A DNA stretch of 45,436 bases from a virus (lineage: Duplodnaviria > Heunggongvirae > Uroviricota > Caudoviricetes). Positions 1 through 12,000 of this stretch are shown piece after piece. Position numbers: made by a program. The stretch lies in the IMG/VR virus record IMGVR_UViG_641736226_000030. One strand, given 5' to 3'. Position 1 is the first letter of the stretch; each line of letters starts with the position of its first letter.

Positions 1-3000
1 ATGGACAACGACAAAATTGATCAACACAGCGACGAAATTGAAGTTGAGAGCGAAGAAAAAGAGCGTGGCAAAAAAATAGAAATAGATGAAGATCGACTCC
101 CCTCCCGGGCGATGGCAATTCATGAGCATATCCGCCAGGATGGTGAAAAAGAGCTGGAACGCGACGCAATGGCACTACTGTGGTCAGCCATTGCGGCGGG
201 TCTGTCGATGGGCGCTTCATTACTGGCAAAAGGGATATTTCATGTCGAACTGGAAGGTGTGCCGGGCAGCTTCTTGCTGGAGAATCTCGGTTATACCTTT
301 GGTTTTATTATCGTCATTATGGCCCGCCAGCAATTATTTACCGAAAACACCGTGACTGCGGTACTACCCGTCATGCAAAAACCGACAATGAGCAACGTTG
401 GCTTACTTATGCGGTTATGGGGCGTCGTGCTGCTGGGTAATATTCTCGGGACAGGTATTGCGGCGTGGGCATTTGAATATATGCCAATCTTCAATGAAGA
501 AACTCGCGATGCATTTGTCAAAATCGGCATGGATGTGATGAAGAACACCCCCAGCGAGATGTTTGCCAACGCGATCATTTCCGGCTGGCTGATCGCCACT
601 ATGGTATGGATGTTTCCTGCAGCGGGTGCGGCAAAGATTGTGGTGATTATATTGATGACCTGGCTTATTGCCCTGGGTGACACCACTCACATCGTTGTCG
701 GTTCTGTTGAAATCCTCTATCTGGTGTTTAACGGTACGCTGCACTGGAGCGATTTCATCTGGCCCTTCGCACTACCTACTTTAGCGGGGAACATCTGCGG
801 CGGCACCTTTATCTTCGCGTTAATGAGTCATGCACAGATCCGTAACGACATGAGCAACAAGCGCAAAGCAGAAGCACGCCAAAAAGCAGAACGTGCGGAA
901 AACATTAAGAAAAATGATAAAAACCCGGCATAAATGGCGAGGGTTTAAGCAATCGAGCGGCAGCGTACTTACCCCGCAGTCCATTAGCGGGTATACTCAT
1001 GCCGCATTGTCCTCTTAGTTAAATGGATATAATGAATATAAGTATTAAGTCATTGATTTAAATACAGAAAGTGGCGAAATAATCGTCATATCAGTACCCA
1101 TTTATGTACACACCCCGTTAAGCATGCCCCGCACTTCCGTACGGGGCATGTTCTTTACTCCACTCCCACTTTTTTGTTGTACTCGCGGTTAAACCGATCC
1201 ACGGCAATTTTCATATCCCGCTCAACCGATTTCACCATCGCCGACTGTTGCGCCAGACTGAGAGTACTGTCGGCGTAAATGGCATCACGCTGTTTACGCA
1301 AATCCTTCAGTCTCTTCCGGGTATCCTGCATAAGCCCGTTCATCGACAATTTTCCGTTGTTCTCGTCAATGAACGCCGTTCTTTCTGCACCGGTCAGACT
1401 CTTCAGCTCTGCGTGATACTGCGCAACCTCTGTCATCCGGTCGTACATCTTCTGCTGGTCAGCATACGGCATCACCTCACCTGAAATTTTCCCCAGGAAG
1501 GGCACCTGCTGCTCCGGTATATCAATACCGTTCAGCGATTTCACCGCCGCATCCGTGGTTTTGGAAATGAAGCGCCCTGTCCCTCCGGAGATATAGTCAA
1601 TCCAGTATTTCAGTGATTCCGGCGTGACATCCACCGCACCGGAACGGTACTGGCTGCCACCAGAGAACGCATTCAGCCAGGATGCAAACGCCTTGTACGC
1701 TTCTGGCGTTGAACGTCTTCCCAGCTGGCTGTCAGGTTTTGGTGTACCAAACGGCATGTTCTCCTGGTAAATCTGCGCCCCCATGAAGTTTTCGTTCATG
1801 GCAAGATTCGCAAACGGACGCAGAATTGTCGGTGCTGCATTTTTCAGCAATGCCCCGGACAGTGTTTCCGACGTTTCACTGCCCACAGGACTGAATGCCC
1901 CAAGCACACCACCAACAACATTACCGGCAGCACGTGAAGCGGTCAGGTCGCCCGCTGCCACCCCTTCGGCTGTGTGACCAAGCAGGAAGAAAACGTTGTA
2001 CCCGTAAGGCAGAGGAATACTCCAGTACTCTCCGGCCTTGCCCCCGAACACCGATTTCATAATGACGAGGTTACGCTCTTTCACATGAGACGGCACCTTG
2101 TCATACCAGTTAACCCCGTCATCATCCTCCCCCGCAACACTGCGGTTAAGCGAGCCAAGCAGATAACCCGCTCCCACAGCTGCAAGCGCGATTTTCTGCG
2201 GTACATTGAGATTCTTCCAGCGAAGGCGCTCCAGTAACGGCCCGTCGCCATTAAGATGTCCGAGCGTTCTCACCAGGTTTGCGGTCCCCTGAATGCTGGC
2301 GTTGGCGAACATGTACAGCGAGTTCATCAGCGCTCCCTGCTCACCACGACGGTTAAAGTTCACCGTCATGTTTTTGGCAAGAGACGCCGCCTGCTGGCGT
2401 GACAAACCGGCATCACGGGCGTGTTTATAGGCAGAAAGACGCAGAGCGTTTTCAACCGCCCCGTTGGCATCCTCGACAAGGTTAAGGAACGAATTCCATG
2501 CACCGATACTCTGGCCTTTCCATCCTCCCTTCGCCAGCGATACAAGGCGATCCATTTCCTTCTGCTGGCCTTCAAGGTCACCCATGTTAAACCAGCCGGT
2601 TTTACCTCCGTCCTCAACAAACTCTTTCCACACCTTCTGCCACTGTGCACCTTTTCCCGTGAGGGTTTTACCACGCAGACTGGCGTATACGGCTGACATG
2701 GCAGAACGGCTGTCTTTCACCACAGCCAGGGCGGATAAGTTATCCAGCCCTTTCAGTTTACCGTCGCTCCTTCCCTGCTCCGCCTTCAGGTTCATCACCG
2801 CCGTCTGCACGTCACGGATGAAGTTACTGACCAGGAATTCCGGGTTATACGACGTGTTCACCGTTGCCAGGAAGCGGTTAACTTTCCCCAGCGTACGAAC
2901 AAAGGCATTGCTGGTTTCCGGTCCCATATTCTTCATCGCACGCATCAGGCGCGGATCATGGAGTTTGATGTAGTACGTTTTGCCGTTCTTTTTGGTGGTG

Positions 3001-9000: not shown

Positions 9001-12000
9001 TCATTATAGCCTTCGGTCATCGGCGTATTCAGCGCACGAACTGCACCCGGCGACATCTTACCGGTCAGCCATTCATCAGTGGCTTTGGCACCATCACTGA
9101 CAGCCTTACCGGTTGCCTTCAGACCTTTACCGACAGTATCAGTAACCGCGTTTTTGCCATCAGGCAGGGTATCGATGACCTCATCAGCCCCCCTGCTGCC
9201 ACCGGCAAAAATATCCTGCACAGTTGCGACACCCGGCAGCCCCATACGGCTGAACTCATTTAAAATACGCGCCCCTGTTTTTACCGGGCTCTGAATCATC
9301 GCATCACCGAGTCCACGGGCCATTTCCCCTGTTCCCCGGACGGACTGGGCGAAACCTTTACCCATTGTTGGCAATACATCGCCCAGGCTGAACGACGTAC
9401 TGTTATCCTTCCAGCGATTCGGATCAGAGAAAAATGCTTCATAGCTGTCAGTTTCGCCGGGTTGCTGAATGTTCAGGCTGTTACGATTCTGGTTACCGAG
9501 TTGCGCCTCAGGACGCTGTTCCTCTGAATAGGCCATACAGACTCCATAAAAAAACCCGGCACAATGGCCGGGCATCAGGAAATGGTATTAATGGAATATC
9601 GTGAATTACTGGGCGTAATTCTGTTTCAGTCCACGGATAAACTGAGATGCAGATGAAGCACTTTCATCTCTGGCCTGTTCCCCCCTGGCCTTTTGAATAC
9701 GGAGAAAATTCGCATACCCGTTCTCCAGCAATTTCTGATTCTGAGGTTCCAGCATTTCAGGCTGACGGGCCGCTACATTTCTGGCAAATGACAGCTTATC
9801 AGGATCATCTCCCGCCCAGTTGATAACCTGTTGCTGAAGTTTTTGTTGCTGAATTTTCTGTTGATGCGGTTGTGAACCAGTCGCAGCATAATATTCATCC
9901 ACCGCAGCCTGAGCATTACCGCCATTCTTGATCGCGTCCGCCGCTACGTTGCTGGCCCCCTTCTGAAGCTCTTTCAGAGAAAGTCCCTGCTGCTTCGGCA
10001 TAAAATAACCATAATTTTTCGATATCTCTGCAAATTTGCTGCGATCCCTGACCTGAGCGATAGCCTTATCAACGGGTATCGCCAGCACGGTTTGATCATC
10101 AGGGTGCGCACTGCCGTATTCTGTTACAGGTTTATGCGCGGTGGAGCCATCGCTGTATGTGAGATCAAGGCCAATAAGTACGTACCCTTCCTGCTGCGCT
10201 GGTACGATACTGCCAATCCTGGCCTCTTTTATCGTTTTGTCCCCGGTTGAATCAGGCATGCCAATACGCTGTTGTAGTTCCGGGGCAAACACGCCGGAAA
10301 GCACATCGAGATTTTCCGGGGTATTCAGCGAATCGATCGCCATGTCCGGCTTATCACCAAAGATTTTTTGCAGGTTGATCACGGCCTGACCCGCTTTCGC
10401 TGCATAGCCTTCGTTTGACATAAGAATTAATGGATGTCCCTTTGGCAGCTGCCCGAACAGACGCGTTGCAGCCTCCTGATCGCCAGCCTCAATTGCTTTT
10501 CCAAGCGCTTCCATTAGTGGCTGGCTATGGGCAATCATATCGTTATACTCAAGCCGTCGCTGGTTGTATTTCTGCAACTGGAGTCGCTGCTGCTCCATAC
10601 CCAGTGACGCATTCCGGTAATTCTGGTTAGCGTTAAACTCCCTCTCCTTCAGTGCATAATTACGGTCGTCAACTTTGGCTCTGTAATCAAAGTTCCGCTG
10701 ATCAACGTTTTTATTATGTTCAAACTGAGACTGCGCAAACTCAAAATCGCGCTCGTTATTTTTCTGTTGCCGGGCAAGCTGTGCTTCACGCAGACCAAGC
10801 TCCTTACGACGGGTCATTGCCTGGTCAACGGTGCTGAATCCGGCAAGTAACCCCTGTGCAAATCCGCTCATTCACCACTCCTTAAAACAAAGAACCAGCA
10901 ATGCCGCCAATTACTGCTCCAGCAACAGCACCAACAGGACCACCAACGGATGCGCCAATAGCCGCCCCCGTACCAATGCCCGTACCGATATTCTGCTTGT
11001 TCTGCGCTTTCTGTTGCGCCGCCATCTGTTTGTTCGCAGCCTCAATTTCTTCACGTCGTCTGTCTGCGTCACTTATTCCCTGTAATGCCTCACGCCGCGA
11101 CTGATTTGCAATATCCAGTAAACCGTATCCCATATTGCCCCCTTACGCTGCCACCAGTTGGCCGCCAACACTCAGTTTCTGTCTTGCCGGTGCAGAAGCC
11201 CCCGTCAGAATATTCATCTGGCGATCCTGTTCGGCTTCACGGATACCATTTTTCGCGCCAGCAATTGCCAGGGCATTACGTAACCCCAGCGTATTACTGT
11301 CGGGATTATCCGGGCGGTTTACCCCGTATCTCGCCATCTGGTTATCCTGCGCCATCTGCGCTGTACGGAGACTGGAAGTGGCAAGGCCTCCCACCCGTGC
11401 AAGCTGTGCATTCATCAGACTGTTGTTCTCCCCAAGGTCAGCCAGCCTTGCCACGCGGGGCAAATATCTGGTTCGCCAGTCGTCGTATTGTTGGCGTGTC
11501 AGCGCTGCTGACGTCTGCCAGTCACCCTGTGGGCGGTCTGCTCCTGAATAACCAGCCCTTGCGAGAGTTTCGTATTTGCCATACTCCATAATTACAGTCT
11601 CCAGTTCTGAGCCTGATGCTGAATGGCATTAGCGCCGGTGCCAGGTGTTTTAGCACCGCCACTTCCTCCGCTACCGCCAGCCTTATGCATCGCATATGCA
11701 CCTGCCGCACCCAGACCAGCGCCAACAAGAGAGGCTCGCCCCTGCTGTTTCGTAAACGCCGCCTGTGCATCCGATTTAGCTTTTGCCAGACTGCTGTCTG
11801 CCAGAGAGTTAAAACTCTGTAACGCATCCGCCTTCTGACCAGAACCGAGAGCAGCAACATCCTGTAGCCCGGCAACATACTTATCTGCCTGCGATACCTG
11901 CCCCCGTGTGGTTGTGTCAATCTGCCCGGTTACCTGGTCACTCTGGTTCGCATTCATTACCGCATTAAAACGACCACTGGATGGGTCAACGCCGGACTGA

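Follow-up and report, generated by a model that had tools for sequence, protein, structure and literature searches.

A giant cysteine-free virion protein of short-tailed Shiga toxin phages, with two predicted zincin domains and an RNase-like domain between conserved terminal modules

The window analysed here, i.e., the whole 45,436-nucleotide stretch of IMG/VR virus record IMGVR_UViG_641736226_000030, is an Escherichia coli O157:H7 Shiga toxin 2a (Stx2a) prophage that resides at the yfdC/argW junction and belongs to the phage PA2 type, and the final gene of this prophage encodes a single polypeptide of 2793 amino acids. We consider it likely, if well short of settled, that this giant protein is an ejected internal virion protein of the short-tailed Stx phages (Sepvirinae) and that it represents the phage type of "polyvalent" protein, equipped with effector domains. 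A sequence-only reading of the window had proposed just such an ejected multi-domain effector, and had named two outcomes that would speak against it: the lack of any peptidase-like fold around its HExxH motifs, and the absence of the protein from purified virions. Neither holds, and the proposal gains support from four recognisable domains (LPD5, LPD1, MuF_C and LPD38) and from the abundance of a near-identical protein in virions of phage phi24B; ejection and peptidase activity are what we infer from these observations.

The DNA of the giant gene is 100% identical to gene gp48 of Escherichia phage PA2 (Sepvirinae, Oslovirus) and 99.3% identical to L0134 of 933W, to ORF80 (ECs1242) of VT2-Sakai/Sp5 and to its counterpart in Stx2 phage I; sequences at least 90% identical occur in 186 phage records, and at the protein level the identity to the phi24B giant protein (gp47 / vb_24B_48) is 97%. 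Given this near-identity to the PA2, Sp5, 933W and phi24B genes, it is not an unknown gene. Sp5 ORF80, 933W L0134 and the gene for the phi24B protein are the same gene, encoding 2793 residues and likewise the last of the late genes, and nothing substantive distinguishes them from the window, which holds the PA2/argW-type Stx2a prophage allele. The sequence-only reading had treated the gene as one without a described role; it is in fact the published and essential Sp5 ORF80, whose exact part in infection is a matter of inference.

The experimental record comes from two sources. Mondal 2016 (PMC5155283) deleted Sp5 ORF80 (ECs1242), described there as having "2,793 amino acid residues". The deletion mutant still excised, packaged DNase-resistant DNA and formed normal heads, and it gave no plaques, gave no lysogens and bound no anti-tail-fibre antibody; the defect was complemented in trans, and the gene was essential even on E. 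coli K-12 hosts (PMC5155283). Head assembly and DNA packaging thus do not need the giant protein, whereas infectivity does. A literature search by locus tags returned nothing beyond this paper. In a 2026 preprint (bioRxiv 10.64898/2026.04.10.717836), phi24B gp47 is abundant in the proteome of purified virions and missing from all cryo-electron microscopy density, ordered capsid and tail alike, and it is proposed to be an ejection protein; the tail and portal of phi24B resemble those of phage GP4. The class to which the protein belongs is also on record, since Iyer 2017 (PMC5512222; Iyer, Burroughs, Anand, de Souza and Aravind) defined both "polyvalent proteins" and the LPD domains. With the gene, its essentiality, its presence in virions and its protein class all published, the finding as such is already known.

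To resolve the architecture of the protein, Pfam was run on the whole polypeptide and then on separate segments at E values up to 10. Four families matched: LPD5 (residues 1051-1200), LPD1 (1361-1440), MuF_C (1750-1839) and LPD38 (2476-2681), and both HExxH motifs fall outside them. The segment-wise run added no further domain, its sub-threshold matches being limited to Gly-zipper, EF-hand and M76 (E=0.22), and the sequence of residues 1040-1900 matched no chain in the Protein Data Bank (PDB). A second homologue search, with residues 1440-1900, returned few sequences, mostly near-identical fragments. Combining family matches with the positions of homologues and with structural models gives the following map.

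1155..9536, minus strand: coding sequence of the giant protein, 2793 amino acids plus the stop codon (1155-1157), with the start annotated in PA2
8157..9536, minus strand: N-terminal module (N-module), residues 1-460 (core about residues 100-460), from homologue positions; phrog_37568
6930..8156, minus strand: low-complexity linker, residues 461-869, rich in E/Q/P/R/A, from composition
6417..6929, minus strand: domain X, otherwise unnamed, residues 870-1040, from conservation in homologues
5937..6386, minus strand: LPD5, residues 1051-1200, Pfam PF18799, E=6.5e-45
5217..5993, minus strand: zincin domain 1, residues 1182-1440, NF041907 E=9.1e-44 and Pfam LPD1 E=5e-24
4482..5129, minus strand: zincin domain 2, residues about 1470-1685, from invariant residues and an AlphaFold model, with no Pfam model
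3927..4394, minus strand: MuF C-terminal domain (MuF-C), residues about 1715-1870 (Pfam match 1750-1839), PF18819, E=1.3e-17
1158..3869, minus strand: C-terminal module (C-module), residues 1890-2793, from LPD38, homologue positions and an AlphaFold model
1494-2111, minus strand: LPD38, residues 2476-2681, Pfam PF18857, E=1.6e-48

Apart from the linker, which contains no Pfam domain and has few homologues beyond close relatives, one polypeptide holds four Pfam domains together with a CLCA_X match, zincin 2, domain X and the two terminal modules. Polyvalent proteins are recognised by their several (2-15) functionally unrelated domains and by their location among phage late or virion genes (or among T4SS genes), and both features are present here; a third hallmark, delivery into the host along with the DNA, is predicted from the occurrence of the 97%-identical phi24B protein in virions.

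Both HExxH motifs that had been picked out by eye are in place. The first, ALAHEWFHSLDNY, has its HExxH at residues 1284-1288 (window 5673-5687), and the second, LRHEIIHHAMEH, at residues 1551-1555 (window 4872-4886). The protein's own composition would lead one to expect 0.035 such motifs rather than the two observed, and neither varies among homologues, even at identities as low as about 20-35%; that they persist in such distant homologues means that they are not there by chance.

The first motif lies within a match to NCBIfam NF041907 (CLCA_X) that spans residues 1182-1437 (E=9.1e-44, 149.8 bits, 243/250 model positions). CLCA_X is a zincin family found on phages and plasmids and linked to the CLCA_N and M64 peptidases (Lenart 2013, PMC3650047). 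Because this match takes in LPD1, LPD1 would be the C-terminal half of zincin 1. Among 45 homologues of about 35-55% identity, the conserved positions are H1263-Y-E1265, H1284-E-W-x-H1288-x-x-D1291-N-Y-F, E1375, R1379 and E1382, of which H1284, E1285, H1288, D1291, H1263, E1375 and E1382 are kept in at least 90% of the 45 and are invariant in our alignment A3: the domain has both the HExxH and a further acidic ligand candidate. When its profile was searched against the PDB, the only return was the active site of anthrax lethal factor (HEFGHAVDDY), with E=0.012 for fragment 2l0r; entries with the full catalytic domain, among them 4dv8, which Iyer cites, reached E=0.23.

The second motif belongs to a separate conserved domain, which occurs in tandem copies in some relatives. 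Across 19 sequences of 17-89% identity, H1551, E1552, H1555/1556, E1607 (codon 4716-4718) and A1610 are invariant, so that a downstream Glu accompanies the motif whether it is read as HExxH or, as in other relatives, as HExxxH, a variant noted by Iyer 2017 (PMC5512222). Its alignment profile drew only coiled-coil noise from the PDB. The AlphaFold model (predicted local distance difference test, pLDDT, of 79 overall and above 90 for residues 20-155) runs in the order helix, three strands, HExxH helix, Glu helix, and matches the zincins anthrax lethal factor, SprT, Wss1 and ArdC, i.e., it has a zincin fold. With a CLCA_X/LPD1 family match for the first domain and a fold match for the second, the expectation of two zincin-type, peptidase-like domains stands up well: both HExxH motifs appear to reside in real zinc-peptidase-like domains, for which zinc-dependent proteolysis is predicted. 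Their closest kin are the CLCA_X zincins (Lenart 2013, PMC3650047) and the anthrax lethal factor-like (ATLF) gluzincins.

Downstream of the zincins, MuF-C is recognised with 64.2 bits against a Pfam gathering cut-off of 27.6 (PF18819). Its conserved positions are K1745, H1752, D1768-P, S1775, T1777, H1801, N1812 and A-S-V-Y-G at 1815-1819, with H1752 and S1816 (and also S1775 and T1777) conserved across 25 homologues, and it is without an HExxH. According to Iyer 2017 (PMC5512222), MuF-C is a PBECR domain with a predicted RNase fold (barnase/EndoU/colicin-like) and no peptidase. The phi24B preprint (10.64898/2026.04.10.717836) nevertheless speaks of a "Muf-C metallopeptidase domain", whereas the metallopeptidase signatures are found in two other domains, about 200 and 470 residues before MuF-C. 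Because MuF-C is an RNase-like PBECR domain lacking HExxH and the zincin signatures are upstream of it, we regard this wording as a misassignment. The sequence-only reading had also suggested a search for MuF and lytic transglycosylase folds; neither a lytic transglycosylase nor a MuF head domain is present, and what the protein has of MuF is the C-terminal, RNase-like domain.

A further property of the giant protein is its lack of cysteine: there is none in 2793 residues. The other minus-strand open reading frames of at least 150 residues in the window contain 0.97% cysteine, against which the depletion has P ~1e-12. The same avoidance extends through the family, with no cysteine in GP4 gp68 (3224 residues) or in the Vibrio phage protein discussed below (3066 residues), 12 in the 81,277 residues of 64 metagenomic homologues, and 33 in the 257,258 residues of 92 giants from the search with the N-terminal region. 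Cysteine depletion is typical of proteins that cross an oxidising periplasm or narrow channels in an unfolded state, and its occurrence here fits ejection without proving it.

The two ends of the protein behave differently from its middle. An exhaustive search with residues 1-1040 yielded 328 relatives, which fall into two pieces, the N-module and domain X. The N-module is always N-terminal in its homologues (phage proteins of 2000-4600 residues), whereas domain X takes variable internal positions in other giants, usually directly before LPD5 and zincin 1. The C-module matches 509 database proteins. It ends about 0-50 residues from the C-terminus in 64 of the 64 homologues with a complete module, and stands at the extreme C-terminus in almost all of 40 further profile-matched giant proteins. 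What precedes it in homologues is 0-670 residues of unrelated sequence, including ART, methyltransferase, InPase and MuF-C domains, and RelA/SpoT and SLT are among the other cargo fused to it. Among phages, its carriers are podophages of Vibrio (41% identity), Ralstonia (GP4-like, 26%), Burkholderia and Bacillus. The AlphaFold model of the C-module is of good quality (pLDDT 84; predicted template modelling score, pTM, 0.80), and in the PDB it has no solved-structure relative, a profile search there giving coiled-coil noise only. In BFVD the same fold recurs as the C-terminal piece of many large phage proteins (template modelling, TM, scores of 0.6-0.88 over about 900 columns), at identities reaching down to 14% and with LT_GEWL, RelA/SpoT or methylase as cargo. 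Each terminal module contains hydrophobic stretches: residues 181-208 (8913-8996) and 407-425 (8262-8318) of the N-module are hydrophobic/glycine-zipper segments, for which the Gly-zipper Pfam matches are weak, and residues 2445-2467 form a hydrophobic helix in the C-module.

The genes that encode these relatives resemble the giant gene in their setting. Ralstonia phage GP4 gp68 (3224 residues, with SLT, LPD3 and LPD38) is the last gene of its virion module (L003:5011-14685), as is p0009 of Vibrio phage 252E42.2 (3066 residues; L004:2464-11664), which in addition has the N-module (28% identity) and zincin 2 and is preceded by a gene homologous to the one that precedes the giant gene in the window (E=2e-12). 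Burkholderia phage JC1 gp69 (4515 residues) combines a lytic transglycosylase, a methyltransferase and a helicase with LPD3 and LPD38, and was detected by 51 unique peptides in mass spectrometry of purified virions (PMC9144972); the JC1 phage group and 933W have homologous portal, capsid and head-closure proteins (PMC9144972). As judged from these alignments, the conserved N- and C-modules form a constant frame that is maintained in one podophage lineage, and between them lies an exchangeable cargo cassette, composed in the present protein of X, LPD5, zincin 1, zincin 2 and MuF-C/PBECR.

A nearly stand-alone version of the C-module (P0166, 981 residues) is encoded in Amphritea sp. (L002:10001-12946). 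It is located in a small, apparently degraded prophage that has genes for integrase, excisionase and YqaJ next to it and lacks virion genes in the vicinity, a setting that was uninformative.

If the giant protein is indeed ejected, the following sequence of events can be envisaged. A few copies would be packaged in the head, and once the tail needle has been released, the cysteine-free polypeptide would leave through the portal and tail channel in a largely unfolded form. The hydrophobic N- and C-terminal segments would help to complete or stabilise the path of the DNA across the envelope, and the central domains would operate as early effectors inside the cell. Packaging, exit and passage across the envelope are probably tasks of the N- and C-modules, and it is probably this constant frame, and not the cargo, that makes the gene essential and explains why the deletion mutant has a tail defect. 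MuF-C would act on RNA. The two lethal-factor-like zincins would most probably cut their own polyprotein into functional pieces, cleavage of host proteins being less likely; following Iyer, autoprocessing is suggested because the zincins are of the lethal factor/SprT/ArdC kind and are found in plasmid-borne polyvalent proteins.

A bolder version of this scheme, which we offer tentatively and regard as rather doubtful, is that the N-module and the C-module of about 900 residues make up a carrier system, hitherto uncharacterised, that belongs to the T=9 GP4/Bcep22/Stx podophages and in which one polypeptide would provide tail completion, unfolded threading, the trans-envelope path and delivery of an effector cassette that the zincins release after entry. 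If this were true, it would amount to a one-protein ejectosome with modular cargo, unlike the three-protein systems of T7 and P22.

Several observations weigh against the view that the giant protein is an ejected carrier of effectors. Its passage into the host is deduced from its presence in virions combined with its invisibility in the maps, and the phi24B proteomics, as reported, are silent on whether it is there at full length (10.64898/2026.04.10.717836). That the deletion mutant showed no tail-fibre labelling is not obviously expected of purely internal cargo (PMC5155283), and this is the main fact that ejection leaves unexplained. Peptidase activity and processing are predicted; the zincin fold of the first domain is assigned from family and profile matches, and its CLCA_X score of 149.8 bits lies below the curated NCBIfam cut-off of 260. 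Aligned to each other with hhalign, the two zincin domains have their HExxH motifs in register, with a match that is weak and not significant (P=0.04 and 0.006), and common ancestry of the two is therefore not claimed. The hydrophobic segments are short stretches with only moderate Kyte-Doolittle hydropathy (1.1-1.4), and a conduit role for the C-module is conjecture, given that the module has no structural relative of known function.

Other explanations have to account for the same facts. Mondal 2016 took ORF80 either to assist in tail assembly or to form part of the tail, and considered that it might be an AAA+ ATPase driving an energy-requiring step of tail formation, a view that accommodates both the DNA-filled heads without anti-tail-fibre labelling and the COG1483 match that they reported (PMC5155283). 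We judge it quite improbable. A Walker A motif (GxxxxGK[ST]) occurs nowhere in the 2793 residues, in agreement with the sequence-only reading; no AAA or P-loop family was found in Pfam, NCBIfam or PHROGs; and the COG1483 assignment was not reproduced. With Walker A and AAA family both absent, the AAA+ ATPase is rejected. As for a tail component in general, the phi24B tail is fully built from other proteins and gp47 is not in the tail density, the homologues carry effector-type cargo, and the tail defect could be indirect if, for example, the state of the portal or plug depends on an internal protein. The phi24B preprint prefers an ejection protein whose metallopeptidase digests the peptide cross-links of peptidoglycan to open a trans-periplasmic conduit, and a virion protein that does not show in the maps would suit this role, as would the true cell-wall enzymes of related giants (SLT in GP4 gp68, a lytic transglycosylase in JC1 gp69). 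We nonetheless think it unlikely: the peptidase was placed in MuF-C, an RNase-like PBECR domain without HExxH, and the actual zincins resemble lethal factor, SprT, Wss1 and ArdC, i.e., cytoplasmic protein-cleaving enzymes, and not the M15/M23 cell-wall peptidases. The same metallopeptidase types occur, moreover, in polyvalent proteins of conjugative plasmids (Iyer 2017, PMC5512222), and Pfam detects no cell-wall hydrolase domain in the giant protein.

That the protein might be a DarB-like antirestriction factor shielding the incoming DNA is suggested by a match of PHROG 10089 ('DarB-like antirestriction') to residues 2351-2681 and by the DarB-like annotation of the GP4 and JC1 homologues. This match is limited to the shared C-terminal LPD38 region, however, and neither of the domains by which DarB is defined, methyltransferase and helicase, is present by Pfam and NCBIfam, on which ground the DarB assignment is rejected; being essential even on E. 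coli K-12 hosts, the gene is also unlike an accessory antirestriction gene, which makes this explanation very improbable. Finally, the HExxH motifs could have arisen by chance or be inactive remnants in a protein with a purely structural role, given that the enzymatic role of both zincins is predicted and that zincin 1 is known from sequence alone. This we find scarcely credible with two motifs in place of an expected 0.035, with both motifs and the extra metal-ligand candidates invariant among homologues of 20-55% identity, and with family and fold evidence that favours real zincin domains.

Viewed beside systems already described other than its own orthologues, the giant protein can be compared with the polyvalent proteins of Iyer 2017, which it resembles in its giant multi-domain form, its location among virion genes and its possession of LPD5, LPD1, LPD38, MuF-C/PBECR and zincin metallopeptidase domains. 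Both of their metallopeptidase types are represented, one with a strand-2 His and an Asp three residues past the HExxH, the other with HExxH/HExxxH alternation. It differs in that Iyer 2017 does not name it ('933W' does not appear in the text) and in that Pfam offers no model for zincin 2, X or the N-module. The giants of Bcep22 (gp75), JC1 (gp69), GP4 (gp68) and Vibrio phage 252E42.2 have a homologous LPD38 C-module of about 900 residues (26-41% identity); these Bcep22-like/Gervaisevirus and Vibrio proteins are likewise cysteine-poor and encoded by the last gene of the virion module, in phages with related portal, capsid and tail proteins. Their cargo is different: the Bcep22-like/Gervaisevirus giants carry a lytic transglycosylase, methyltransferase, helicase and LPD3 where the present protein has X, LPD5, zincin 1, zincin 2 and MuF-C, and among these relatives only the Vibrio giant has the N-module and zincin 2 in common with it.

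The resemblance to classical ejection proteins is one of proposed role. Like T7 gp14/15/16 and P22 gp7/16/20, the giant protein would be an internal head protein that leaves through the tail and bridges the envelope; unlike them, it is one polypeptide instead of three and has no transglycosylase, and neither sequence nor fold similarity to them was detected. A protein of the T7 gp16 type, marked by an N-terminal SLT domain, is rejected on the lack of a Pfam SLT match in the giant protein, SLT being present in the GP4 homologue; the SLT transglycosylase of GP4 gp68 is like that of T7 gp16. The virion RNA polymerase of N4 (gp50) is likewise a giant (about 3500 residues) that a podovirus packages in its head and ejects, and it has a metallopeptidase domain according to Iyer 2017 (PMC5512222). 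It differs in its RNA polymerase module, which the giant protein does not have, the sole link being a weak PHROG 2206 match to residues 235-623 (E=0.006). An N4-like RNA polymerase is rejected as well, with no RNA polymerase family matching in Pfam or PHROGs.

The limits of the gene and its signals agree with what had been read from the sequence. A single unbroken open reading frame (1155..9575, minus strand; 2806 residues from its first in-frame ATG at 9575) ends the prophage, and its position as the last gene before the host junction is borne out by the attR of PA2 and by yfdC, the host DNA at the left end of the window (1-933), which is 100% identical to E. coli O157:H7 TW14359, EC4115 and SS17. 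The genes of the late operon upstream include those for terminase, portal, capsid and tail fibre, and the giant gene closes this operon before attR and yfdC. The start at ATG 9536 with its GGAG, giving 2793 residues, is the one annotated in PA2, and the first in-frame ATG falls within the hairpin of the intrinsic terminator that had also been noticed (stem 9573-9554, seven pairs of which six are G-C, followed by the T7 tract).

1008..1032, minus strand: attR core as annotated in PA2, where prophage and host DNA meet, just downstream of the giant gene
9542..9545, minus strand: GGAG Shine-Dalgarno sequence, 5 nt upstream of ATG 9536
9547..9573, minus strand: intrinsic terminator, GCCCGGC-loop-GCCGGGT then T7, separating the ORF79 homologue from the giant gene
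9606..10871, minus strand: upstream neighbour of 421 residues, the Sp5 ORF79 homologue, with a Vibrio phage 252E42.2 homologue at E=2e-12

Sp5 ORF79 is likewise essential (Mondal 2016, PMC5155283). The terminator is strong and interrupts the late operon upstream of the giant gene (window 9547-9575), whose transcription presumably relies on a Q-modified, terminator-resistant polymerase. In TW14359, the RefSeq orthologue (L001:21155-29530) measures 8376 nt against 8382 nt, the difference of 6 nt being in-frame and the flanks identical.

Elsewhere in the window, a Hok/Gef-type toxin gene and lom are embedded among the tail genes (about 12800-13910, minus strand; identified via PA2 gp54-gp55), a few kb ahead of the giant gene, and are dispensable for virion formation; the Bor gene is still further upstream, near the lysis genes. 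G+C content peaks at window 20001-22000 (0.62 and 0.58), where AT skew is strongly negative. Mapping to PA2 gp63-gp66 places this peak around the tail-fibre gene's 5' part and adjoining structural genes; the Sp5 tail fibre is reported to contain collagen-like Gly-X-Y repeats, and these may explain the peak. Three tRNA genes are located upstream of stx2 (window 38522-38773, minus strand), the third of which is called tRNA-Met (CAT) by ARAGORN and tRNA-Ile (AUA-reading, presumably lysidine-modified) in the PA2 and phi24B records.

The analysis leaves the basic picture in the literature unchanged. What it adds is the assignment of both HExxH motifs to zincin domains, one of them previously unannotated, the correction of published annotations in two cases (AAA+ ATPase, and MuF-C as a metallopeptidase), the recognition of a constant frame with variable cargo common to podophages of Burkholderia, Ralstonia and Vibrio, and the description of cysteine avoidance across the family and of a C-module without any known fold. 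The short-tailed Stx phages are vehicles by which Shiga toxin genes spread among E. coli, and 13% of their genome is given to the giant gene, which is essential. A packaged and probably ejected carrier of two zincins and an RNase-like domain would thus offer concrete handles on how these phages cross the cell envelope and take over the cell.

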